A stretch of DNA of 64,000 nucleotides from an uncultured Acidimicrobiia bacterium. Lineage in GTDB: Bacteria; Actinomycetota; Acidimicrobiia; Spongiisociales; UBA4744. This document shows positions 20,116 through 42,787 of this stretch, piece after piece (the stretch's first letter is position 1; each line of letters opens with the position of its first letter). The stretch is taken from assembly GCA_964594235.1 (NCBI GenBank), contig CAZQMF010000002.1, positions 5,697 through 69,696 of the forward strand, written 5' to 3'. A program made the position numbers and the translations under genes. The notes beneath the pieces were generated by a model. The model made no database searches, was not told the DNA's origin, and worked only from the letters and a program-made list of their open reading frames with translations.

Positions 20116-20436
20116 CTAGCCCTCGGTCGGCTCTTCGGTCACCTTCTCGACGGCCTCAGGCGCGTCTTCGGCTACGCCCCTGTTGCGGAAGTCCTCCGCG
20201 ACGTCCTTGGCCTTCTCGAACGCCTCTGAGGCTGCTTCCTTGGCCTTGCCCATCATCGGTGCGGCCTTCTCGCCGAGATCGCCTGCCATCTCCTTGGCCT
20301 TGCCCACCATCGGTGCGGCCTTCTCGCCGAGATCGTCGGCCATCTCCTTGGCCTTGCCCACCATCGGTGCGGCCTTCTCGCCGAGATCGTCGGCCATCTC
20401 CTTGGCCGAGCCGAATAACTTCTTGAGCGAATCCAT
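20116..20436 (-). CDS. Small hydrophilic protein with three tandem 18-aa repeats (AKEMADDLGEKAAPMVGK)
   Basis: The start MDSLKKLFG is preceded by AAGGAGAGG. The DNA has 3 x 54-bp near-identical tandem repeats (about 20247-20410). It has an acidic, lysine-rich, helical composition like LEA/CsbD/phasin-type stress proteins. Confidence 0.55.
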   Translation of the reverse strand: MDSLKKLFGSAKEMADDLGEKAAPMVGKAKEMADDLGEKAAPMVGKAKEMAGDLGEKAAPMMGKAKEAASEAFEKAKDVAEDFRNRGVAEDAPEAVEKVTEEPTEG

Positions 20437-30442: not shown

Positions 30443-31296
30443 AGCAACCCCTTGTGGAACAGCGCGAGGAGGTCCATGGCCCCTGCGATGGAGATGTGCA
30501 GCGCCGCTCCCCACCACACAGACCGGGTCTTGAGGCTCAGCGTGCCGAGTACGATCGCACCGAACATCGCCGCCAGCGCCTCGAGAATCGGCTTGGGGAA
30601 GTGCAGCATCACGTACGGGACCATCATCACGAAGATCGCCGAGTACCCGAGCCGCAGCTTCAGCCCGTGCACCATGAATCCTCTGAAGAAGAACTCCAAC
30701 GCGGCGAACTGGAGCGCGTAGAGCACCCACCACAACCACATGTACGGCCAGAAACTCTCGCCCGGTCCGAGGTGATAGAAGGAATACTTGGCGAGGAACG
30801 GAGCCGACGACGACACAACGATGATGAACGGCATACTCACGGCAAGAAGCAGCGCATACACCCACACGTGCGACGCCGAGCCTCGAACTCTCAGTCCAAA
30901 GTCTCGCAGCCGGCCGCCTATCACATAACGGATTGCGAACACCGGGATGGCCACGTACGCGAAGATGTGCACGATCGCCCACAGGGCGAGTCCGTTGAAT
31001 TGGGCCGAGGGCGACGTCGTGAGCCAGGCATCGACCCCGTCGGCGGCTCCTCCGAGACCCACCGTGTGCAGGAGCGTCACGAGCCACCAACCGTCGCGGG
31101 ATGCGTAGTCTCGGATCAGGAGGGCCAACGCCGAGGCAACGAGGATCGTCACCATGTCTCTGGTTGCCTTCGCCTCGGACGTCACCTCGCGATAGAGGTC
31201 CGATTCGGCATCGGCGGTCACCCGCACGTCCGTGACGTAGGTCTGCCACAGGCGGACCGGGAGCGACGGTGTGCGCGGGAGGGTTTCGATGGCCAC
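30439..31296 (-). CDS. CPBP-family intramembrane metalloprotease (CAAX protease / Abi)
   Basis: It has multiple TM helices, motif 1 EExxxR (ALEFFFRGF) and later conserved His-containing helices (FGAIVLGTL...ALHISIAGAMD). Confidence 0.75.
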   Translation of the reverse strand: MAIETLPRTPSLPVRLWQTYVTDVRVTADAESDLYREVTSEAKATRDMVTILVASALALLIRDYASRDGWWLVTLLHTVGLGGAADGVDAWLTTSPSAQFNGLALWAIVHIFAYVAIPVFAIRYVIGGRLRDFGLRVRGSASHVWVYALLLAVSMPFIIVVSSSAPFLAKYSFYHLGPGESFWPYMWLWWVLYALQFAALEFFFRGFMVHGLKLRLGYSAIFVMMVPYVMLHFPKPILEALAAMFGAIVLGTLSLKTRSVWWGAALHISIAGAMDLLALFHKGLL

Positions 31297-31340
31297 GCAG
31301 GCAGGCTACCGGCTGTTGTTGGTCTCACCCCGTTACTACT

Positions 31341-31772
31341 GTGATCCAGAGGAGGGTGTCACTGGACGAGACGGAAGCACTCCATCGACTCGTAGCGGCT
31401 CGGTCCGGCTATCTCGCCACCGCCGGTTCCGATGGCCGTCCGCACATTGTCCCGTTGGTCTTCGCCGTCGATGACCGCACGATCGTGTCGATGGTCGACG
31501 CAAAACCAAAACGGAGCACCGATCTGCGGCGCGTTCGCAACATCCGCGACAATCCGTCGGTGAGCGTGCTCGCCGACCACTACGAACCGGACTGGTCTCG
31601 GCTCTGGTGGGTGCGAGCCGACGGAACGGCGCACATCCTCGACTCGGGTTTCGAGCAGGTCGCAGGACTCCTCCGTGCGAAGTACCCGCAGTACGTCGAC
31701 ATCGACCTCGTCGGTCCGGCGATCATCATCGACATCGAGCGGGTTGCCGGGTGGGCGAGTTCCACCAGGTGA
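31341..31772 (+). CDS. PPOX-class (pyridoxamine 5'-phosphate oxidase-like) probable F420/FMN-dependent split-barrel protein
   Basis: It has LVAARSGYLATAGSDGRPHIVPLVFAVDDRTIV...NIRDNPSVSVLADHYEPDWSRLWWVRADGTA, the typical PPOX class F420-dependent family. The start is uncertain (GTG 31341, GTG 31356 or ATG 31269). Confidence 0.55.
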   Translation: MIQRRVSLDETEALHRLVAARSGYLATAGSDGRPHIVPLVFAVDDRTIVSMVDAKPKRSTDLRRVRNIRDNPSVSVLADHYEPDWSRLWWVRADGTAHILDSGFEQVAGLLRAKYPQYVDIDLVGPAIIIDIERVAGWASSTR

Positions 31773-31809
31773 ACGGGCTCCGTCCCAACCCCCTGGTACG
31801 CTCGCCGAA

Positions 31810-33483
31810 ATGACTGAGCAGCAGCCCGTCGGTCGGGTCATCGGCACCGAAGACGCCACGCCACTCGAGTTCTGGGTCGGCGTCGAGGAAGGCCAGTACC
31901 TCCAGTTGGACGACGTCGTCGCTCTCGAACGCACCCTGCCCGCAGGCGATGTGGTTCACATCTACGGGATGGTCGAACAGGTTCGTGCCCGTCACGAGGG
32001 TGCCAGGTTCGACTCGGACGTGTTCCTCATCGAAGACGGTGTCCTTCCTGCCGAGGTGAGCGAGGCGGCCAAGGTCGTCGCGACCCGGTTCGAACCCGAG
32101 ACGTTCGTGCCGCCCCGGCCCGGTCAGGCCGTCCGGCGAGCGGTCGGCGAGGATCGAGACAAAGCGTTGTTCTTCGATCAGATGGTCGAACGTATCCCCG
32201 TGGGTCTGTCGAGAGCCGGTGAACCCATGTTCGTCAACCTCGAGTTTCTCGACGGCACTCGTGGCGCCCACGTCAACATCTCCGGTGTGTCCGGTGTCGC
32301 CACCAAGACCACCTATGCGACATTCCTGCTGCACAGCCTGTTCACCTCAGGTGTGCTTGGCGCCAAAGCGGTGAACACCAAGGCGCTGATCTTCAACGTC
32401 AAAGGCGAAGATCTGTTGTATCTCGATCGCCCGAATCTGTCGCTCGATGCCGCCCAGCGCGACAAGTACGCGCCACTCGGGCTGCCCGCCGACCCGTTCC
32501 GCTCGGTCAGCATCTACGCCCCTCCGAAGCACGGGTCGAAGACCGGCGCCCCCGACGTCGCCTCCCGCCACGAGGGCGTCACGCCGTTCTTCTGGTCTCT
32601 CGCCGAGTTCTGCTCCGACGACCTGCTCCCGTTCTTGTTCGCCGGCGCCGAGGACGATCGGGCCCACTACTCGATGGTCGTGTACAACGTCATGGCCCAG
32701 CTCCACAAGGCGATCCGGCTCGACGACGGAGGTGTCGCCATCGACGGGCAAGAGATCCTCACCTTTCGCGATCTCGTCGACTTCATCACGACCAAGGTTC
32801 AGGACGAGGAGACTCGATACGAGTGGGCGGGTCCGGCGATCGGTGCCGGGACCGTCAACGCGTTCGTTCGGAGGCTCCACGGTGCGGTTCGCCATGTCGA
32901 GCACCTCATCAGAGGTGACCTGTCGAACGTCCACCCGATCGAACTCCAGAAGCAGATCACCGTCGTCGACATCCACAACCTCAACGACAGGGCAAAACGC
33001 TTCGTGGTCGGCGTCACGGTCCGGCGTGCCTTCGAGGACAAGGAACGCCAGGGGCACTCCGACGAGCTGCTGTTTTTGGTTCTCGACGAACTGAACAAGT
33101 ATGCGCCGAGGGAGGGGTATAGCCCGATCAAAGAGATCCTGCTCGACGTTGCCGAACGGGGACGGTCGCTGGGCGTGATCCTCATCGGCGCGCAGCAAAC
33201 GGCCTCTGAGGTCGAGCGGCGCATCATCGCCAACTCGGCGATCAGGGTGGTCGGCCGTCTCGACTCGGCGGAAGCGAGTCGAGAGGAGTACGGGTTCCTT
33301 CCCGGCGTCCAGCGGCAACGAGCCACCATCATGAAGCCCGGCACGATGCTCGTCTCGCAACCGGAACTGCCGATCCCGGTCACCGTCGAGTTTCCGTTCC
33401 CCGCGTGGGCGACTCGGGTCTCGGAGGCGGGCCCGGCACCCGGCGGCGGGAACGGCCCGGCCGATCCGTTCGACGGGCTGTAG
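31810..33483 (+). CDS. HerA-like / FtsK-like (DUF87) ATPase with an N-terminal HAS-barrel-like domain and a non-canonical P-loop
   Basis: It has an N-terminal barrel-like region (GRVIGTEDATPLEFWVGVEEGQYLQLDDVVAL), a P-loop-like GVSGVATKT (no GK[ST] dipeptide), Walker B (LLFLVLDELNKYAP) and a C-terminal SLGVILIGAQQTASEV (the TQ-motif region of HerA/VirB4-type ATPases). Confidence 0.65.
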   Translation: MTEQQPVGRVIGTEDATPLEFWVGVEEGQYLQLDDVVALERTLPAGDVVHIYGMVEQVRARHEGARFDSDVFLIEDGVLPAEVSEAAKVVATRFEPETFVPPRPGQAVRRAVGEDRDKALFFDQMVERIPVGLSRAGEPMFVNLEFLDGTRGAHVNISGVSGVATKTTYATFLLHSLFTSGVLGAKAVNTKALIFNVKGEDLLYLDRPNLSLDAAQRDKYAPLGLPADPFRSVSIYAPPKHGSKTGAPDVASRHEGVTPFFWSLAEFCSDDLLPFLFAGAEDDRAHYSMVVYNVMAQLHKAIRLDDGGVAIDGQEILTFRDLVDFITTKVQDEETRYEWAGPAIGAGTVNAFVRRLHGAVRHVEHLIRGDLSNVHPIELQKQITVVDIHNLNDRAKRFVVGVTVRRAFEDKERQGHSDELLFLVLDELNKYAPREGYSPIKEILLDVAERGRSLGVILIGAQQTASEVERRIIANSAIRVVGRLDSAEASREEYGFLPGVQRQRATIMKPGTMLVSQPELPIPVTVEFPFPAWATRVSEAGPAPGGGNGPADPFDGL

Positions 33484-33531
33484 GCCCACTCCAGACGACA
33501 TCGGTCCGGTGACGGTGACTACCGTCACGGT

Positions 33532-34635
33532 GTGGGTTCGGTGATCCTCATCGTTGCGTTCCTCGGATTCCCTGCGGTGGCCACGTGGGGAGCTCGCAGG
33601 TTCAAACCGCTCGAGTTTCTCGGACCGATCGTGCTCTGCTACCTGTTCGGAATCGCCCTCGGGAACATGTTCACCATCGATACCGATCTGGCGACGACGT
33701 TCACCGAGGCGACGGTCGTCCTCGCCATTCCACTCCTGTTGTTCACCACCGACTTCAGGGCGTGGCTCCGGATCGCCCGTCCGGCCGTCGTGTCCTTCGC
33801 GCTCGCCACGATCGCCGTCGTGATCACTTCGACGATCGCGACGTTGGTCCTGTCGGTCGCCCACGACTGGCAGATGGCCGGCATGACCGTCGGCGTCTAC
33901 ACGGGAGGCACGCCCAACATGAGCGCAGTCGGCATCGCGCTGGACGTACCGGACGAGACGTTCGTTCTCATGAATGGGGCCGACGTGATCCTCTCCGGCC
34001 TCTATCTCCTGTTCCTCCTGTCGATCGCTCAGCGGGTCCTTGGTCGGTTCCTTCCCGCATTCGACGTGTCCCGTTTCGGCGGCGACACCACGGAAGACGC
34101 GAAGGTCGCACCGAAGGTTCGGAACGTGGTTCTGGCCCTCGCAACCAGCATCGGCGCTTCCGCCGTCGCGGTCGGACTTGTCTACCTCTTCGCCCCCGAC
34201 CTGCCCATCGCTTTGGTGATCCTGTCCATCACGACGGTCGGGGTCCTCGCTTCGTTCGTGCCGAAGATCAGGACACTTCCCGGGACGTTCGAGACGGGCG
34301 AGTTTCTCCTCCTCATCTTCGCCGTTGCCATCGGCACACTCGCCAACGTGCGGCAACTCGCCGGGGCGTTCGGGGGAGTGTTCCTCTTCGTCGCCGTGGT
34401 GCTCATCGGGGCGATCGTGTTGCACTACGTGCTGGCTGCAATCTTCCGAATCGACACCGACACCGTCCTGATCACCTCGACCGCCGCCGTGTTCGGACCG
34501 GCGTTCGTGCCGACCGTGGCGGGAGCGTTGAAGAACCGAGCAATCATCGTGTCGGGGTTGACGACCGGGGTGGTCGGCTACGCGATCGGCAACTATGCCG
34601 GCATCGCGCTGGCCTATCTGCTCAAGCCTGGATAG
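33532..34635 (+). CDS. DUF819-like polytopic membrane protein
   Basis: 367 aa with about 10-12 hydrophobic helices. It has a two-fold internal repeat architecture with conserved Gly/Pro loops (VYTGGTPNMSAVG...; LITSTAAVFGPAF). Confidence 0.55.
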   Translation: MGSVILIVAFLGFPAVATWGARRFKPLEFLGPIVLCYLFGIALGNMFTIDTDLATTFTEATVVLAIPLLLFTTDFRAWLRIARPAVVSFALATIAVVITSTIATLVLSVAHDWQMAGMTVGVYTGGTPNMSAVGIALDVPDETFVLMNGADVILSGLYLLFLLSIAQRVLGRFLPAFDVSRFGGDTTEDAKVAPKVRNVVLALATSIGASAVAVGLVYLFAPDLPIALVILSITTVGVLASFVPKIRTLPGTFETGEFLLLIFAVAIGTLANVRQLAGAFGGVFLFVAVVLIGAIVLHYVLAAIFRIDTDTVLITSTAAVFGPAFVPTVAGALKNRAIIVSGLTTGVVGYAIGNYAGIALAYLLKPG

Positions 34636-35955
34636 CTACAGCGAGTACAAGCCGTCGAGGGTCTGAAGCACGATCTCGTGCAGGGTGCCGTCATCCGGCA
34701 GCGTTGTCATCATCCCGTACATCGCCGCCTGTCCGCTCGATGCCAGCTCGGGATGCGCTCGCACATCGTCGACGGCGCTCCGAAGATCGTCCAGGAACTC
34801 TTCCACGATCCCTGCGTGGGCAGGTGTCACCATGAAGTGGAGCGACGCCGGCTTGATCTGCCGGTCGACATGCCACCCGCGAGCCTCCAACGCGTCCCCG
34901 ACCGCGTAGGTGTCGACATCGACTCCCCGGAAAGCGAAGACGCTCAGTCTGGGGTCTCCGAGGATCTCCAAACCCTCCACCTTTCGGACTCCTTCGACAA
35001 GCCGCCGCGAGATGTCGAGGATCTGCTCGGTTATCGCCAGGTAGCCGTTCTGGCCGATCGCCTGCATAGCCGCCCACGCGGCCGCAATCGGCCCACCGGG
35101 GCGGGTGCCGGCCATCGACGGTGAGGCGTAGATTCCTCCCGGCCAGTCGCTGGTGACATGGAATTGAAACCTGCGGAGCTCAGGCGTTCGGTAGAGGATG
35201 GTGGATGCCCCTTTGGCCCCGAACCCGTACTTGTGAACATCAGCAGACATCGACGTCACACCGGACGCACGGAAGTCCCACACGCCGAGTGAGACTCCGA
35301 GTTGTTCAGCCCACGGAACGAGGAAGCCGCCCAGGCAGGCATCGACGTGCATCCCGATGTCATGCGCGGCGGCGATCGACGCCAGCTCCTCGATCGGGTC
35401 GACCTGACCGAACGGGTAGTCGGGAGCCGAGCCGACCATGAGGATCGTGTTCGGGGTGATGGCTGCCTCCATCGCCCCCAGGTCGGCCCTCAGGTCATCT
35501 GCCAGGGGGACCCGCACCTGTCGCACCCCGAAGTAGGCGGCAGCCTTGTCGAACGCTGCGTGCGCGGTCACAGGCAACACCATCTCTGGTTCCGAGTTCC
35601 CCTTGGTCGCCGCCGCCCAGTCTCTGTACGTCTTCACGGTCGCGAGCAGGCTCTCCGTGCCACCGGAGGTCATTGTGCCGGCGACCTGAGCGTCCCCGTT
35701 GAGCATCGTGGCGGTCATGCGAACCACCTCGGCCTCGAACCGACGCAACGCGGGAAACGCCATCGGGTTGAGTGCATTCTCGGAGAAGAACAGCCCGTGG
35801 GCGTCCTTCAGGAATGTCGTGTGGTCGTCGCCGGCGTGATAGACGAGACTCCACGTGCGACCGTCCTCCCAACTCGCTTCGGCCTCCGCGAGAGACTTCA
35901 TCTCGCTCAGGATCTGGTCGTGTGGTCTGCCGACAGGCGGGATCTGGGTGTCCAT
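34636..35955 (-). CDS. PLP-dependent decarboxylase (group II; glutamate decarboxylase / sphingosine-1-phosphate lyase-like)
   Basis: Start MDTQIPP. It has TSGGTESLL...HVDACLGGF...the PLP-Lys in SADVHKYGFGAKGAS. Confidence 0.8.
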   Translation of the reverse strand: MDTQIPPVGRPHDQILSEMKSLAEAEASWEDGRTWSLVYHAGDDHTTFLKDAHGLFFSENALNPMAFPALRRFEAEVVRMTATMLNGDAQVAGTMTSGGTESLLATVKTYRDWAAATKGNSEPEMVLPVTAHAAFDKAAAYFGVRQVRVPLADDLRADLGAMEAAITPNTILMVGSAPDYPFGQVDPIEELASIAAAHDIGMHVDACLGGFLVPWAEQLGVSLGVWDFRASGVTSMSADVHKYGFGAKGASTILYRTPELRRFQFHVTSDWPGGIYASPSMAGTRPGGPIAAAWAAMQAIGQNGYLAITEQILDISRRLVEGVRKVEGLEILGDPRLSVFAFRGVDVDTYAVGDALEARGWHVDRQIKPASLHFMVTPAHAGIVEEFLDDLRSAVDDVRAHPELASSGQAAMYGMMTTLPDDGTLHEIVLQTLDGLYSL

Positions 35956-36018
35956 GACCGCAGCGTAGCGACGACGGGTGACGCGGTTGCGTCCCTCGTC
36001 GTCGGTACCATCGGCGCG

Positions 36019-37158
36019 GTGAAGATCCTGCACACAGCCGACTGGCACGTCGGCCGTGCCATCCGCGGTCGAAGTCGGGCGGACGAACACCGGGCGGTTC
36101 TCGAGGAGATCGCATCGATCGGCGCCAGGGAGGCTGTCGATCTGATCGCCGTCGCCGGCGACATCTTCGACGTGGTCGCGCCGACCGCGGAGTCCGAACA
36201 GATCGTCTACCGGGCGCTACTGCGATTTGCCGACATTGCACCCGTCGTGATGGTCGCAGGCAACCACGACAATCCGCGGCGCCTCGACGCGGTAGCGCCC
36301 CTTCTCGAACTCGGCCGGGTGCATGTGGTCGCGACACCGATGAAGCCGGACGAAGGCGGTGTCGTGAAGATCGAAACCAGTTCCGGGGAGGTCGCAAGAG
36401 TGGCGATGCTGCCGTTCGTCACGCAACGCGGCATCGTCTCGGCGTCCGCGCTCATGGACCTCGAGGCGTACGAGCATGGGGCGCTGTATGCCGAGCGGCT
36501 CACTGCGATCCTCGCGATGCTCACTGAAGGGATCACGACGGACGATGTCAACATCGTTGTCGCCCACGTGATGGTCGCCGAGGGCGTCCTCGGTGGGGGA
36601 GAACGCAGCGCACACACGGTCTTCGACTACTGGGTGCCGGCGGGAGCGTTCGACGGCGCCCTCTCATACGTCGCCCTCGGGCATCTGCACCGGCCGCAGC
36701 AGACCCCCGCCGCGGCTCCTGTGTGGTACGCAGGGTCACCACTTCAGCTCGACTTTGGGGAAACCGAGGATGAGAAAGCCGTGCTCGTCGTGGATGTTCA
36801 ACCGGGACTGCCTGCCGCGGTCACTCAGGTGCCCCTCACGTCCGGGCGACGTTTGCAGCAGCTCCGAGGGAGCATCGAGTCGCTCGAACCCCTTGCCGGC
36901 ACAACCGGTGACGCGTACCTGAAGATCGTCCTCGAAGAGCCGGCGAGAGCGGGGCTCGCCGATCAGGTACGAGAACTGTTTCCCGAAGCCGTCGATGTCG
37001 TTCTCGCGGCACCCGAGGGTCGGCACCGCAGCACCCCTCGCGAAGCGCGATTGGGTCGTGTTCCGCACGAACTGTTCGTCGAGTACCTCGCCGAGGCCAA
37101 CGCTTCCGATGAGCGAGTCGTAGTGTTGTTCGACGAGCTCCTGGAGGAGGCTCAGTGA
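36019..37158 (+). CDS. sbcD: Nuclease SbcCD subunit D (Mre11-family calcineurin-like phosphoesterase)
   Basis: GTG start. It has ILHTADWHVG (motif I), AGDIFD (II), AGNHD (III), VAHVMV (IV) and LGHLH (V). Confidence 0.8.
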   Translation: MKILHTADWHVGRAIRGRSRADEHRAVLEEIASIGAREAVDLIAVAGDIFDVVAPTAESEQIVYRALLRFADIAPVVMVAGNHDNPRRLDAVAPLLELGRVHVVATPMKPDEGGVVKIETSSGEVARVAMLPFVTQRGIVSASALMDLEAYEHGALYAERLTAILAMLTEGITTDDVNIVVAHVMVAEGVLGGGERSAHTVFDYWVPAGAFDGALSYVALGHLHRPQQTPAAAPVWYAGSPLQLDFGETEDEKAVLVVDVQPGLPAAVTQVPLTSGRRLQQLRGSIESLEPLAGTTGDAYLKIVLEEPARAGLADQVRELFPEAVDVVLAAPEGRHRSTPREARLGRVPHELFVEYLAEANASDERVVVLFDELLEEAQ

Positions 37159-39506
37159 GGCCGGTCGAGCTCGAGATCGCGGGATTCACCGCATATCGGG
37201 ACGAGACAACGATCGACTTTCGAAACGCCGACCTGTTCGCCCTCACCGGTCCGACCGGATCAGGCAAGTCCAGCATCGTCGACGCGATCGTGTTCGCTCT
37301 CTACGGGTCCGTCCCGAGATATGGGGACCGGCGCGCCGTCGAGCCGGTCATCACGCTCGGCAAGAACGAAGCTCGCATCCAGTTCGACTTCACCGTCGGC
37401 GACGATGCGTACCGTGTTGCCAGGGTCGTCCGACGCACCAAGGGCGGGGGCGCGACCACCGCCGAAGCACGCCTCGAACATGGCCGTGTCACGCTCGCAT
37501 CCGGCGCAGACGAGGTCACCAAGAAGGTCGAGGAGCTTCTCGGACTTGCCTATGAGCACTTCATCAAGGCCGTCGTCCTTCCGCAGGGCGAGTTCGCTCG
37601 ATTCCTCCATGACAAACCTCGTGAGCGACAGGAGCTGCTGCGAGAGCTCCTGGACCTCCGCGTCTACCGGCGCATCCGGGATCTCGCCAATGAACGCAAG
37701 TCGGTTGCAGATCGACTGCTCGCAGGGCACCAACGCGAGGTCGATCTGCTTGCCGAGAGGGCCGGTGGTGATGAGGACGCCGCTTCCCGTCGTGTATCCG
37801 AACTCGAGCGGCTCCGCGACACCATCGCCAGGATCCGCACGCAGGTGGCATCGATCGACGAACAACTGAAGGATGCGACGAAGCAGATCGCCGACGAAGA
37901 GGCAGCTATGTCGGCCCTGGCCATCCGGTCTCCGGACGGTCTCGACGAGCTGGTGGGTCGGATTTCCGATGCAGACACCGCGGTCGACAAAGCCAAGTCC
38001 GCCATGGTGAAGGCGAGCGAGGCACTGAGCGCGCATGAGCAGTCGATCGCAGGGCTCCCGAACCCGGCGATACTCGAGTCTCAGATTGCGCAGCAACGAT
38101 CCCTCGAGGACCTCCTTGGTCGGCACGAGCGCGCGACCGAACAGCTTGCCAAGTCGGCCGCGGACATCGAACAGAAGCGCCGGACTGCCGGCGCGGTCGC
38201 ACAGGCACACTCGCAGACGGAGGAGGAACTCGAACGGCTCCGGCGCGCACACGCGGCGCACGAACTCGCTGCGAACGTCGTAGTCGGTGAGCCGTGCCCG
38301 GTGTGCGGAGTCCCCATCGCAGAGATCCCGAAGGTCGAACCGATCGCGGACGTGGAACGAGCCGTAGCCGACGTTGCTCGCCGAACAGCCGATCTCGATG
38401 CTGCACGAAGGGCCCTGACCGAAGCTGAACTCGCCGGTGAGCGATCGAGGGCTACTGCGGACGAGATCTCCGCTCAGATCGGCGCGCTTCGAGCCGGCCT
38501 CGATGGTGTCCCCGGTATCGACGAGCTGGCTCGAACCCTCGCTGCCACTGCGGCTGCACAGCAACGACTCGCCGAGCTGAAGGCAACTGCACTCACCTCA
38601 GCCAACGAGCTCCGCGCCGCCGAACAGCGTCGGGAAGCGCTCACCGAAGCGCGGGCCGAGGCGCTTGCCAAATTCCACGGCGCACGAGATCGCGTCGCTC
38701 ACCTGGAGCCACCACCGGTAGTGCCGGACGATCTTGCCATCGCATGGGCGGCATTGACCGAGTGGGCAGTCGCCCGCTCACAGGAGACGCACAAGCGGCT
38801 GGAAGGGCTCCGAGCCGACGCGAAGCAGCTCGTGGACGATAGATCCCGCCTCACCGAGGATCTCGACACGCACCTTGCCGGCATGGGCGCGGATCTCACG
38901 CCGGATGAGGCCGTGTTCTCGGCCCGCAAAGACCTCGAAGGCATACGGGAGGCGAAACAGCGAACCAAGGAACTCGCAGCAGACATCACCGCCGAGAAGG
39001 ACCGAAGTCACGTCGCCGCAGCACTCTCGCGACACCTGCACTCCAACCGGTTCGAGTCATGGATCCTCGAAGAGGCACTCATCGGACTGACCGTGGGTGC
39101 CAATCAGCTGCTCGACGAGCTGTCTTCTGGCATCTACTCGCTCGAGATCGACAAGGCGGGTTTCACCGTCATCGACCATCGCAACGCCGATCAGCGACGC
39201 TCCGTCCGCACGCTGTCAGGAGGCGAGACGTTCCTCGTGTCCCTTGCCTTGGCACTCTCACTCTCTGAGGAGCTCACCAGGATGTCATCGCAGGGGAAGC
39301 TGGAGTCGATCCTTCTCGACGAGGGATTCGGCACCCTCGATCAAGAGACCCTGGACGTGGTGGCCTCGGTTGTCCAGCAGCTCGGCGCCAAAGGACTCAC
39401 CGTTGGTCTCATCAGCCATGTGCCCGACCTCGCCGAGCAGGTACCGACCCGGTTCGTCGTCACCAAGGATGTCAGCGGGGCACACGTCGAACGGATCGAC
39501 GCATGA
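37155..39506 (+). CDS. sbcC: Nuclease SbcCD subunit C (Rad50/SMC-like ATPase)
   Basis: The GTG overlaps the sbcD stop (GTGA). It has N-terminal Walker A (LTGPTGSGKSS), a long coiled-coil, a CPVCG zinc hook (GEPCPVCGVP), and a C-terminal signature (LSGGETFLVSLALALSLS) with D-loop/Walker B (LLDEGFGTLD). Confidence 0.85.
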   Translation: MRPVELEIAGFTAYRDETTIDFRNADLFALTGPTGSGKSSIVDAIVFALYGSVPRYGDRRAVEPVITLGKNEARIQFDFTVGDDAYRVARVVRRTKGGGATTAEARLEHGRVTLASGADEVTKKVEELLGLAYEHFIKAVVLPQGEFARFLHDKPRERQELLRELLDLRVYRRIRDLANERKSVADRLLAGHQREVDLLAERAGGDEDAASRRVSELERLRDTIARIRTQVASIDEQLKDATKQIADEEAAMSALAIRSPDGLDELVGRISDADTAVDKAKSAMVKASEALSAHEQSIAGLPNPAILESQIAQQRSLEDLLGRHERATEQLAKSAADIEQKRRTAGAVAQAHSQTEEELERLRRAHAAHELAANVVVGEPCPVCGVPIAEIPKVEPIADVERAVADVARRTADLDAARRALTEAELAGERSRATADEISAQIGALRAGLDGVPGIDELARTLAATAAAQQRLAELKATALTSANELRAAEQRREALTEARAEALAKFHGARDRVAHLEPPPVVPDDLAIAWAALTEWAVARSQETHKRLEGLRADAKQLVDDRSRLTEDLDTHLAGMGADLTPDEAVFSARKDLEGIREAKQRTKELAADITAEKDRSHVAAALSRHLHSNRFESWILEEALIGLTVGANQLLDELSSGIYSLEIDKAGFTVIDHRNADQRRSVRTLSGGETFLVSLALALSLSEELTRMSSQGKLESILLDEGFGTLDQETLDVVASVVQQLGAKGLTVGLISHVPDLAEQVPTRFVVTKDVSGAHVERIDA

Positions 39507-40405
39507 AGTTCTCCGTCGAACCGTGGGCGCCGGAGTACGGCACCCCCATGTCGCCCGACTTGGAAGAGACCACCACCGTTCCGGATGTGGACGTCGAGGT
39601 CCCGGCGGGGAAGTGGCACCCGATCAGCCCGAGCGTCACACCCGCCTCGACGATTCTGTTCGTCGATGGAGTTCGCCGAATCGATGCGAACGTCTGGATC
39701 GGCGACGAACAGCCGGTACTCGGCATCTGCGCCACCTACGCCGCCGGGGCGGTCCGCTCAGACGGCGACGCGAAGCTCGTCGCTGCAGCGGTGCGGCGCG
39801 GGCTGTTCACCTCGTCGCCTCAAGCCGAAGCAGTCGATACTCGCCACGGACGGTACGAAGTTCGAGCGACAGCCGGTTCATCCACCGAGGACCTGTGGCT
39901 GGGGCTTCAGCAGCGGATGGGCGAACTGGAGCACGAGATCTCCTCCGAACATCTCGACGTCGAACTCGTCATCACCGATGGGCCGTTGAGGACGGGCCGG
40001 GAGCCGGGTGTCGTGGGCTACGTCAAGACACACCACGTGCAGTACCTCCCTCCTGCCCTGAACGGCGTGCTCGCCGCGCTGCGCCCCGGCGATCGAACGC
40101 CCCTGTTTCTGATGACCACGGCGTGGAGTCGCTACTCGTGGTACCTGCGGCTGCCAGGAGGCGGTAGCGGTCCTTTCGCGGGGGTGGTCCGGTGTGAGGC
40201 GTCGGCCGACCAGGATGTCGCGTCTGCACGAGCGCTCGCCGACCGCGTCGCCGCAACGCTGCCCCGGTTTGCCTCCGAACGCCACAAGGATCCGCGTGCC
40301 CCGCAGAACCTCTACCCGATCGGGGGCCTGGAGCGGGAGTTGCGCCGGAGGCTCGGAGACCAGCATCTGCTGTACCGGGCATTGCTGGTGGCGGCGGGCG
40401 CCTAG
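39503..40405 (+). CDS. Hypothetical protein translationally coupled to sbcC; tentatively a NurA-like (RNase H-fold) nuclease
   Basis: The ATG overlaps the sbcC stop (ATGA). It has an ordered D...E...D...H pattern reminiscent of NurA catalytic motifs: ILFVDGVRRID (D55), GELEHEISSE (E143/145), VELVITDGPL (D160) and YVKTHHVQYL. It has no other recognisable domain. Confidence 0.35.
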   Translation: MKFSVEPWAPEYGTPMSPDLEETTTVPDVDVEVPAGKWHPISPSVTPASTILFVDGVRRIDANVWIGDEQPVLGICATYAAGAVRSDGDAKLVAAAVRRGLFTSSPQAEAVDTRHGRYEVRATAGSSTEDLWLGLQQRMGELEHEISSEHLDVELVITDGPLRTGREPGVVGYVKTHHVQYLPPALNGVLAALRPGDRTPLFLMTTAWSRYSWYLRLPGGGSGPFAGVVRCEASADQDVASARALADRVAATLPRFASERHKDPRAPQNLYPIGGLERELRRRLGDQHLLYRALLVAAGA

Positions 40406-40645
40406 GCGAGCTGCGCTCGCAGGTTGTCGGTTCTCAGTATTCGGTAGGGAGGCTCGCTGCGCTCGCCGTTCTCGGTTTTTGGTTCTGGGTTTTCTTTAGG
40501 ACACTCGCCGTGCGGCTTTGGTGTGATCCAGGCTGCGTTCTTACTGAAGTATTGATGACTGATGACTGATGACTGAAGACTGAAGACTCATGACTGAAGA
40601 CTGAAGACTGAATACTGTCGGCCGCAGGCTGACTCACTCGCTTTT
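40405..40645 (+). repeat. Dispersed intergenic repeat, expanded copy D, with a long degenerate heptamer array
   Basis: It has the left palindrome GGCGAGCTGCGCTCGC, the GGTTGTCGGTTCTC / TTTTTGGTTCTGGGTTTTC module, GCGTTCTTACTGA, then about 11 heptamers TGA(T/A)GAC/TGAATAC. The 3' end GACTCACTCGC overlaps the gpsA stop. Confidence 0.65.
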
Positions 40646-41626
40646 GGCTTCTCTCGTCATCAGAGCGAGGACGGCTTCCCGTGGACCGGCCCCGTCGTAC
40701 AGCACCCTGCCCACCTGTGTCGCGATCGGCATCTCGACTCCGTGGCGGTGGGCGAGGCTGAGCACCGCCCTGGTGGTCTTCACACCCTCGGCAATCATGT
40801 GCATGTCGGCGATGATGTCGCCGATCGTCCGACCCCTACCCAGTTCCACGCCGACTGTGTGATTGCGGCTCCGGGTCGACACGCAGGTCGCGATCAGGTC
40901 CCCCATGCCGGCGAGTCCCGCGAACGTCTCACGCGAGCCGCCCATCGCGACACCGAGTCGTGTCAGTTCGGCGAGTGCTCTCGTGATGAGCGATGCCAGA
41001 GAGTTGTCGCCGAACCCGAGACCCGACGACATGCCGGCAGCGATGGCGAGGACGTTCTTCAGCGCACCCGCCGTCTCACACCCGACGACGTCCCGATTGG
41101 TGTACACACGAAACGTTGGACCCATGAACAGCCGCTGGAGTTCCTTGGCCTGGTCCATGTTCTCCATCGCGATGACGGTCGCGGTCGGCTGCCCCTCCAT
41201 CACCTCGGATGCGAGGTTCGGACCTGTCATCACACCGACTCGCGAGGGATCGTGATCGAACAGGACGTCCATCGTCACTTGGGTCATTCGCAAGAGGCTG
41301 TCCTGCTCGATCCCTTTCGACAAACTGAGGATCGGTACCGATGAGTCGAGTCTGCCGGTGAGCCCTTCGATCACAGTTCGGTACCCGTGTGACGGGACGG
41401 CCATCACGACCACGTCGGTTCTGTCGACTGCTTCGTCCAGATCACTGGTCGCGCGGAGACCATAAGGGAGGCGGTGACCTGAGAAGTAGTCGGGATTCTC
41501 CCCGGTGGTTCTGATCGCTTCTGCCAGCTCCGGGCGGCGGGCCCAGAGCACAGTGGGGTGGGTTCGGGCGCTGAGGGCCGCGACCGTGGTCCCCCACGAA
41601 CCTGCTCCGATCACACTCACACGCAT
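40634..41626 (-). CDS. gpsA: NAD(P)H-dependent glycerol-3-phosphate dehydrogenase
   Basis: It has MRVSVIGAGSWGTTVA...NPDYF...LSKGIE...GALKNVLAIAAGM. The upstream part of the 725-aa ORF is antisense to ychF. Confidence 0.85.
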   Translation of the reverse strand: MRVSVIGAGSWGTTVAALSARTHPTVLWARRPELAEAIRTTGENPDYFSGHRLPYGLRATSDLDEAVDRTDVVVMAVPSHGYRTVIEGLTGRLDSSVPILSLSKGIEQDSLLRMTQVTMDVLFDHDPSRVGVMTGPNLASEVMEGQPTATVIAMENMDQAKELQRLFMGPTFRVYTNRDVVGCETAGALKNVLAIAAGMSSGLGFGDNSLASLITRALAELTRLGVAMGGSRETFAGLAGMGDLIATCVSTRSRNHTVGVELGRGRTIGDIIADMHMIAEGVKTTRAVLSLAHRHGVEMPIATQVGRVLYDGAGPREAVLALMTREAKSE

Positions 41627-41683
41627 CTCGTCGTACCGTAGTCCGCTCCGCCATCCCATCGTCGCCGGCGTCCGGCATTCCTC

Positions 41684-42787
41684 GTGCAGTCGATCGACCG
41701 GTACAGTTGTGCCGTGGCTCGACTCGGGATCATCGGCCTTCCCAACGTGGGCAAGACGGCGCTGTTCAACGCGATGACCGGCCTCGACGCGCCCACCGCC
41801 CCGCACCCGTTCTCGACGACATCTCCGAACCTTGGGGTCGCATCCATCCCGGACGAACTGCTCGAGACCGCTGCCGAAGTGGAGCACTCGAAGAAGATCG
41901 TGCACGCAAGCCTGGAACTCCTCGATCTTCCTGCCATGGCCGCCCACGGGGGAGGCTTGGGCACCCAGTTCCTCGGGAGACTCCGAGAGATGGACGGCCT
42001 GGTGATGGTCGTGAGAGCGTTCACCGACGAGGAGGTTCCCTCCGACGAGTCCGGGACCGACCCGGCCGCACAGGCGGAAGAGCTCCTTCTCGAGTTGACG
42101 ATGGCGGACGCGGACGTGTTCGAACGAAGGCGGCCGAAGATTGCCAAGGAAGCTTCTGCCGACCCGAAGAAGAAGCGGGCATCTGAGGCGATCTCCGAAG
42201 CGGCCGATCACCTCGCGCAGGGACGTCCACTCCGCGACCGGGAGTGGGAGGAACCGGATCTCGTCGCCTTCCGGGATCTTGCACCGCTCACGTTGGAGCC
42301 TGCGGTCTGGGTCGTGAACATCGACGAGGGTGAGGCGCGGCAGGAGGAGCTCGTCACGGCTGTCGCCGAGCTGGTGCCTCAAGGCGACTCTGTTGTTGCG
42401 CTGTCCGTGAAGATCGAAGCCGAGGTCGCCGCCATGGACGTCGACGATCGCCGGGATATCCTCGAAGGACTCGGTATGGGCGAGGGAGCGCTCGCCGAGA
42501 TGGTGCGGGCCGCCTACGCGACGCTCGGACTGCTCACCTTCTACACCGTTGGACCGAAGGAGTCTCACGCGTGGACGGTTCGACGTGGAGCTACCGCTCC
42601 CGTTGCGGCAGGCAAGATTCACTCGGACCTGCAGCGAGGGTTCATCAGGGCCGAGGTGGCGACGATCCACCAGGTGATCGAGGCTGGAGGATGGGACGCC
42701 GCCAAGTCCCATGGGGAGGTCCGGGTCGAAGGTAAGGACTACGTCGTCCGGCAGGGGGACGTCCTGGTGGTGAGGTTCTCGGTGTGA
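41684..42787 (+). CDS. ychF: Ribosome-binding ATPase YchF (Obg-like)
   Basis: It has GIIGLPNVGKTALFNAMT (G1), a coiled-coil insert and a C-terminal TGS domain (DLQRGFIRAEV...VVRQGDVLVVRF). An alternative GTG start is at 41714. Confidence 0.85.
   Translation: MQSIDRYSCAVARLGIIGLPNVGKTALFNAMTGLDAPTAPHPFSTTSPNLGVASIPDELLETAAEVEHSKKIVHASLELLDLPAMAAHGGGLGTQFLGRLREMDGLVMVVRAFTDEEVPSDESGTDPAAQAEELLLELTMADADVFERRRPKIAKEASADPKKKRASEAISEAADHLAQGRPLRDREWEEPDLVAFRDLAPLTLEPAVWVVNIDEGEARQEELVTAVAELVPQGDSVVALSVKIEAEVAAMDVDDRRDILEGLGMGEGALAEMVRAAYATLGLLTFYTVGPKESHAWTVRRGATAPVAAGKIHSDLQRGFIRAEVATIHQVIEAGGWDAAKSHGEVRVEGKDYVVRQGDVLVVRFSV

Follow-up and report, generated by a model that had tools for sequence, protein, structure and literature searches.

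Sulfolobus carries an operon in which herA, mre11, rad50 and nurA stand in this physical order. The subject of this article is a bacterial cluster for the same four functions in a 64,000-nt stretch of DNA (the window) from an uncultured Acidimicrobiia bacterium (GenBank assembly GCA_964594235.1, contig CAZQMF010000002.1). Here, sbcD and sbcC are followed by an overlapping third gene for a 300-amino acid (aa) protein, identified below as nurA, and herA lies farther upstream. To our knowledge, Deinococcus radiodurans is the only bacterium whose nurA-herA genes have been studied biochemically. Bacterial NurA-HerA has been described as restricted to a few bacteria, such as Deinococcus-Thermus (PMC9960219), and homologues have been noted in Actinobacteria, Cyanobacteria and Firmicutes (PMC8708640).

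The bacterial pair has been treated as a system without linkage to SbcCD that may have come from archaea (PMC9960219, PMC8708640, PMC12977600). In D. radiodurans, nurA-herA forms an operon of its own that is not clustered with sbcCD (PMC8708640, PMC4663267), and the link between the two systems “remained to be uncovered” (PMC4663267). A precedent for clustering comes from Oceanithermus profundus, where nurA-hepA was remarked in passing to lie together with sbcD-sbcC (PMC5448004). The archaeal operon (PMC4351679, PMC2288612, PMC3326311), whose genes are listed as herA, mre11, rad50, nurA in Sulfolobus (PMC4351679), matches most relatives of the present locus in the order of the HerA, Mre11-type, Rad50-type and NurA genes.

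Identity of NurA, HerA, SbcD and SbcC

A preliminary description of the window, made from the sequence alone, had proposed that a NurA-type nuclease is coupled to sbcDC. Tests by profile, structure prediction and residue conservation bear out this central call, and on these grounds the 300-aa protein is identified as a genuine bacterial-type NurA nuclease. Its sole Pfam match is NurA (PF09376; aa 138-270, E 7.3e-5), which at 22.8 bits scores above the gathering cut-off of 21. A profile built from the NurA family matches the D. radiodurans protein (DrNurA) at E 1.7e-35 and Thermotoga maritima TM1739 (TmNurA) at E 1e-13. Among the candidates, more than 6500 proteins scored at E<=1e-3, collapsing to 1352 clusters at 50% identity; most of these homologues are “hypothetical protein” in databases, and a few bear the name “DNA double-strand break repair nuclease NurA”.

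An AlphaFold2 model of the protein, built on a 31-sequence alignment, was confident, with a predicted local distance difference test (pLDDT) of 88 and a predicted template-modelling score (pTM) of 0.86. The model was compared to the PDB by Foldseek. The best match was DrNurA in the HerA-NurA complex (7f6d_G; E 1.4e-19, template-modelling score (TM) 0.72, 29% identity), followed by TmNurA (1zup; E 8e-17, TM 0.70) and Sulfolobus solfataricus NurA (SsoNurA, 2ygk; E 1e-7). Beyond these three solved NurA structures, the matches were the NurA-like protein TdpB, then Argonaute PIWI domains and RNase H. The modelled fold is RNase H-like or PIWI-like and agrees with the solved NurA structures. DrNurA is both the best structural and the best profile match, and NurA and HerA of the D. 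radiodurans complex (PDB 7F6D; PMC9960219) are of the same bacterial type as the proteins described here, although the present NurA is shorter than the 349-aa DrNurA.

The preliminary description had singled out four motifs in the protein, and all four are present where it placed them: FVDG at aa 53-56, ELEHE at 141-145, ITDG at 157-160 and THH at 176-178. Residue conservation was assessed in a 249-sequence alignment consisting of the query and 248 homologues of 38-91% identity. D55 (248/249), E143 (247/249) and D159 (248/249) are nearly invariant, so the putative catalytic Asp and Glu residues are conserved in homologues. The D/E/D assignment made earlier was right, as was the spacing of about 17 residues between Glu and Asp, with E143 preceding D159 by 16 residues. 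SsoNurA has a D-E-D triad with comparable spacing, formed by E116 and D133 (PMC3326311). The suggestion that THH is a catalytic motif does not hold: H177 and H178 are conserved in only 151 and 149 of the 249 sequences, and the conserved residue at this site is K175 (248/249).

The fourth metal ligand of NurA is a His in Pyrococcus furiosus NurA (PfNurA) and a Glu in TmNurA, whose active site is D49/E140/D157/E280, with E280 taking the place of PfNurA His411 (PMC3300031). Counted through a family-profile alignment, D55, E143, D159 and E277 align to these four TmNurA residues. E277, conserved in 241/249 sequences and located within a C-terminal PQNLYPIGGLE motif, would be the fourth ligand here, a Glu rather than the His of the archaeal enzyme. 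Counted in the same way, D55, K175 and R265, the last of which is found in all 249 sequences, align to DrNurA D53, K201 and R309, three residues whose functional importance was shown by mutation (PMC9960219). The predicted active site is therefore D55/E143/D159/E277, with K175 and R265.

NurA of the bacterial type has an N-terminal extension made up of a dimerisation strand, a conserved Trp and a pin-like motif. In DrNurA these include W8 and a pin at residues 10-15, described as a bacterial-specific unwinding element (PMC9960219). The N-terminus of the present NurA is modelled as a strand (residues 3-6) followed by a low-confidence loop (residues 11-23), and an N-terminal EPWAPEYG segment holds W8 (243/249) and Y12 (217/249). 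This segment fits a Trp and pin-like element of the DrNurA kind, a region that differs from the archaeal proteins; the equivalence is suggested by position and composition, as the hidden Markov model alignment to DrNurA omits the N-terminus.

The preliminary description had paired NurA with SbcCD instead of HerA. This pairing does not hold, because it overlooked a HerA orthologue encoded 2.5 kb upstream. In a phmmer search of PDB sequences, the window's HerA matches D. radiodurans HerA (DrHerA, 7f6d_B) over nearly its full length at E 4.2e-153 and 514 bits, in two stretches that together cover HerA aa 5-543. Its Walker A motif, SGVSGVATKT, aligns to the K175/T176 motif of DrHerA, and a Walker B motif, FLVLDE, lies at about aa 422, numbered from the ATG at 31810. 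This start was chosen because the upstream open reading frame (ORF) ends at 31772. The gene was probably easy to overlook because Pfam gives just a weak HAS-barrel match, at 20.8 bits and thus under the cut-off of 25.2. No sequence match to S. solfataricus HerA was found at E<0.01.

SbcD scores 177.8 bits with the NCBIfam model TIGR00619 (sbcd; cut-off 77.65), is also recognised by Pfam Metallophos, and has the phosphoesterase motifs DWH (8), GDIFD (47), GNHD (81) and GHLH (221). The best NCBIfam match of SbcC is TIGR00618 (sbcc; E 9e-79); its 265.6 bits fall under the equivalog-style cut-off of 478.5, in keeping with the shortness of the 783-aa protein. SbcC is also matched by Pfam AAA_23, SMC_N and SbcC_Walker_B, and has a Walker A motif, GPTGSGKS (32), a zinc hook, CPVC (381), a signature motif, LSGGE (687), and a Walker B motif, ILLDEG (719). 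The catalytic motifs of SbcD, SbcC and HerA are all intact. SbcD and SbcC fit bacterial models far better than archaeal Mre11 and Rad50 models, the latter matching SbcC far more weakly, with E 1e-33 at best. All four proteins are closer to bacterial than to archaeal models or structures, as also seen in the Foldseek values for NurA, which are much lower for the D. radiodurans and T. maritima proteins than for SsoNurA. Recent wholesale transfer of the cluster from archaea was considered and is unsupported, since all four proteins fit bacterial models or structures better.

Linkage of the four genes across relatives

The chain of GTGA and ATGA start/stop overlaps that joins sbcD, sbcC and nurA, first noticed in the preliminary description, was confirmed from coordinates and junction sequence. 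The three genes form a translationally coupled operon, and herA is a separate unit 2.5 kb upstream following a two-gene insertion. Relatives of this locus were found by scanning one genome per GTDB species with two conserved peptide patterns. Within the limits set by these two patterns, 581 stretches encoding nurA relatives were recovered; the best 80 were taken, all of them Acidimicrobiia-like metagenome-assembled genomes (MAGs), and their neighbouring genes were located by tblastn with the window's proteins.

Whether homologues follow sbcC consistently had been left to such a survey, and they do: nurA is directly preceded by sbcC in 81 of 83 testable loci. At this junction the sbcC stop and the nurA start share 4 nt in 59 of the 81 loci and 1 nt in another 6, which makes the two genes translationally coupled in 65/81, or about 80%. 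sbcD adjoins sbcC in 75/76 loci, and the sbcD-sbcC-nurA block is essentially never split across the loci examined. herA abuts sbcD in 45/72 loci; in 22 more it is encoded upstream in the same orientation, 0.5-6 kb away, so that 67/72 have a co-oriented herA at a distance of at most 6 kb. Across the class Acidimicrobiia, NurA identity is 56-82% and the cluster is vertically conserved. Because herA abuts sbcD in most loci and sbcC precedes nurA in nearly all, the ancestral layout in this lineage, as read from these gene orders, would be herA-sbcD-sbcC-nurA on one strand, encoding bacterial-type proteins.

The junction between herA and sbcD, at 33484-36018 in the window, is a recurrent insertion point. 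The genes that occupy it here, for a DUF819 membrane protein and a pyridoxal phosphate (PLP)-dependent decarboxylase, are unrelated to the module, although they split herA from sbcD, and they are limited to the three closest relatives (L001-L003). The remaining lineages hold nothing at this site or differing genes: a DUF222-HNH endonuclease and DUF6629 in L007 (3966-6496), a DAO oxidoreductase and mannosyl-3-phosphoglycerate synthase in L072 (3558-6513), and CrcB and a serpin in L040 (3705-6351). Since different and unrelated genes are found in different lineages, the junction has been invaded repeatedly by independent insertions. They do not represent a fifth, conserved component of the module: this possibility was rejected because the inserted genes vary by lineage and are functionally unrelated.

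The four genes also occur together in distant homologues of 38-43% identity, namely in Haloglycomyces albus, in a 7.6-Mb metagenomic chromosome and in two further contigs. H. albus is a cultured actinomycete whose protein has already been named NurA by NCBI. An arrangement of this kind is typical of the NurA subfamily: it is seen across the Acidimicrobiia and in at least one cultured actinomycete. One contig carries nurA alone. In an unclassified bacterium (L083, 10001-16761; GCA_018780265.1), the order is nurA-herA-sbcD-sbcC, with a long SbcC of 1009 aa; this is the arrangement reported for O. profundus (PMC5448004). Compared by its description, the O. profundus cluster likewise joins a bacterial HerA/NurA pair with bacterial SbcD and SbcC. 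It belongs to another phylum and has its nurA and herA side by side at the upstream end, whereas here nurA comes last and is coupled to sbcC. Compared with D. radiodurans, the locus differs in that nurA is coupled to sbcC and herA stands at the opposite end of the cluster from nurA. In an actinobacterial soil contig (L088, 4802-7406), a 38%-identical nurA is followed by an overlapping gene, possibly herA, that runs off the contig end. Next to this nurA lie whiB and a Ku gene in divergent orientation, which places NurA beside the non-homologous end joining factor Ku.

The preliminary description called the locus an unusual bacterial end-resection module. This is fair with respect to the Deinococcus model but overstates the novelty, because the arrangement is the rule in the subfamily and has a precedent in Oceanithermus (PMC5448004). 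The four proteins belong to known families, and the sbcCD-nurA-herA linkage is a little-noticed arrangement with bacterial precedent.

A proposed end-processing module and its rivals

Very probably, the product of the 300-aa gene is an active NurA of the bacterial type that combines an RNase H/PIWI-like fold with a D-E-D-E metal site and acts in a four-component HerA-SbcD-SbcC-NurA module for DNA-end processing, with activity assigned by homology. The mechanism can be pieced together from D. radiodurans and archaeal systems, and its steps are conditional for that reason. SbcCD, which is of the Mre11-Rad50 (MR) type, would recognise broken or blocked DNA ends and trim or open them. A HerA hexamer would dock on a NurA dimer and pump duplex DNA into NurA, where the N-terminal Trp and pin region would part the strands. 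As the DNA is translocated, the two-metal site formed by D55/E143/D159/E277 would cut mostly the 5' strand, so that a 3' tail remains for RecA. A 6:2 translocase-nuclease mechanism would be expected, as in D. radiodurans HerA-NurA. Such a mechanism has been proposed for DrNurA-HerA (PMC9960219) and for archaeal MR/HerA-NurA (PMC3326311, PMC4351679); by analogy, we infer the enzymatic activities, the formation of a complex and any contact of SbcCD with HerA-NurA.

Several observations weigh against this interpretation. A 2026 study showed that Thermococcus kodakarensis HerA-NurA degrades both strands, and questioned the role of such complexes in resection (PMC12977600); the label “resection” is contested for this reason. 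In the window, the four genes are not contiguous, unlike those of the archaeal operon, as herA is parted from sbcD by two genes, one of them on the opposite strand, and herA would not share a transcript with nurA. The available flank of 5 of the 72 loci showed no herA. A search for damage-inducible promoter motifs was negative: the sequences upstream of sbcD and herA matched neither a mycobacterial-type LexA box nor a RecA-NDp-type promoter. Lastly, the Pfam match of NurA exceeds its cut-off by only 1.8 bits, and NCBIfam models gave no match to the protein. The earlier statement that the protein has no obvious domain holds in part, given also the labels of most homologues, but PF09376 does narrowly pass.

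The marginal Pfam score, the missing NCBIfam match and the prevalence of “hypothetical” labels could also be taken to mean that the third ORF is a degenerate, non-catalytic NurA-like remnant, or that its motifs resemble those of NurA by chance in a GC-rich ORF. The probability of this is negligible. A remnant would not be expected to have so large a family of homologues, invariant catalytic residues and a confidently predicted fold that matches NurA structures, and the codon-position GC pattern of the ORF is typical of coding sequence. Fold prediction, Foldseek, profile matches and residue conservation together refute this explanation. A different proposal accepts the nuclease and assigns it primarily to SbcCD, where it would be a third subunit or an auxiliary nuclease whose 5'-3' activity complements the 3'-5' activity of SbcD, with HerA dispensable or loosely associated. 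The coupling of nurA is indeed to sbcC and not to herA in 65/81 loci, the sbcD-sbcC-nurA block is essentially unbroken whereas herA and sbcD have been split many times, and herA was unseen in a few flanks. Yet herA is on the same strand and close by in 67/72 loci and shows very strong conservation with respect to DrHerA; in the absence of its HerA partner, DrNurA is barely active (PMC9960219, PMC12977600); and the N-terminal Trp and the putative pin features, of the kind used in HerA-driven unwinding, are conserved. An SbcCD accessory of this kind is very unlikely.

The module might instead serve mainly to destroy linear foreign DNA, in an anti-phage or anti-plasmid role like the degradative mode of RecBCD, with HerA-NurA digesting both strands of ends exposed or opened by SbcCD. 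Degradation by the T. kodakarensis complex affects both strands irrespective of how the DNA end is structured, the authors of that study propose an antiviral role, and HerA partners nucleases in known defence systems (PMC12977600). The TdpAB defence complex (PDB 8WFD) likewise combines a NurA-like nuclease with a HerA-like ATPase, and its TdpB is a structural match to the present NurA, albeit a weak one (E 2.4e-4, TM 0.42) and much weaker than genuine NurA. The SbcC head domain is generically similar to the defence ATPases LmuB and mad3. When the four proteins were scanned with PADLOC, however, NurA matched no defence model, and the scores of SbcC and HerA, at <=105 bits, reflect generic ATPase-head similarity and are far under their SbcC and DrHerA matches. 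The cluster lies at a stable chromosomal site whose neighbours, gpsA and ychF for example, are housekeeping genes, and its vertical conservation throughout the class is unlike that of patchy defence islands. This housekeeping-like conservation and the linkage to SbcCD also set it apart from TdpAB. Moreover, D. radiodurans nurA and herA mutants have recombination defects (cited in PMC12977600, PMC4663267). On the PADLOC results and this class-wide conservation, a dedicated defence island is disfavoured, and destruction of foreign DNA is an improbable rival.

A stronger form of the end-processing interpretation is that SbcCD and HerA-NurA constitute one physically or functionally integrated four-protein “resectosome” in a large bacterial lineage comprising Acidimicrobiia and other Actinomycetota. 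The nearly universal translational coupling of sbcC and nurA would then reflect a direct assembly step between SbcC(D) and NurA. Because the proteins are bacterial in type, the partnership of MR with HerA/NurA would have an ancient origin or have evolved independently a second time, and would be neither an archaeal speciality nor an import from Deinococcus-Thermus. This integrated form is put forward tentatively and is, on balance, rather doubtful.

Setting in the window and meaning of the linkage

The coordinates of the four genes and of the features between them are given in the table. GC content is about 64% across the whole window, and its closest relatives are Acidimicrobiia MAGs.

Table. 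Genes of the herA-sbcD-sbcC-nurA region and intervening features, in window coordinates.
Feature	Position	Strand	Basis or remark
herA (bacterial-type HerA hexameric translocase/ATPase, NurA motor partner)	31810..33483	+	DrHerA match
DUF819 membrane protein	33532-34635	+	Pfam DUF819 E 2e-38
PLP-dependent decarboxylase	34636-35955	-	Pfam Pyridoxal_deC E 2e-17
63-bp divergent spacer, decarboxylase start to sbcD start	35956..36018	.	coordinates
sbcD (Mre11-type nuclease subunit, 379 aa)	36019..37158	+	GTG start at 36019, N-terminus VKILHTADWH
sbcC (Rad50-type ATPase subunit, 783 aa, short coiled coil)	37155..39506	+	GTG start overlaps sbcD stop (GTGA)
nurA (bacterial-type NurA nuclease, 300 aa)	39503..40405	+	ATG overlaps sbcC stop (ATGA)

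The divergent spacer upstream of sbcD is the presumed promoter region of sbcD-sbcC-nurA; a scan of it gave no sigma-70-type, LexA-box or RecA-NDp-like match. Two terminator-like matches, both on the minus strand within sbcC, are no more frequent than expected by chance. No structured RNA family was found by an Rfam scan of positions 31000-42000. A 434-aa ORF antisense to sbcC (37260-38564, minus strand) has a codon-position GC profile like that of real genes; it mimics this coding pattern because an antisense frame shares codon phase in a high-GC genome. This and the other long antisense or alternative ORFs in the operon were rejected as genes and are the usual shadow ORFs of a genome of this GC content.

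Two tandem repeats were detected with Tandem Repeats Finder (TRF). A 7-bp repeat, ACTGAAG, is present in 10.6 copies at 40543-40617 (TRF score 92), in the AT-richer convergent spacer between the stop codons of nurA (40405) and gpsA (40634). It is absent from the equivalent spacer of two of the closest relatives (L002 and L003), and the contig of the third (L001) stops just past nurA. A 54-bp repeat at 20237-20407 has 3.2 copies of 97% identity (TRF score 321) and presumably corresponds to an 18-aa coding unit.

No new kind of enzyme or mechanism is revealed by these data. What the locus and its relatives present is an sbcDC operon with a HerA-NurA pair of bacterial type built into it. The same linkage is thus found in two domains with independently diverged proteins, which is good comparative evidence that MR-type and HerA/NurA-type machines cooperate, and the widespread coupling of sbcC and nurA strengthens the case for a partnership of MR with HerA-NurA. 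Culturable mesophiles such as H. albus are offered as test organisms. If the integrated resectosome were to prove true, it would provide a tractable mesophilic model for the contested handover of DNA ends from MR to HerA-NurA.

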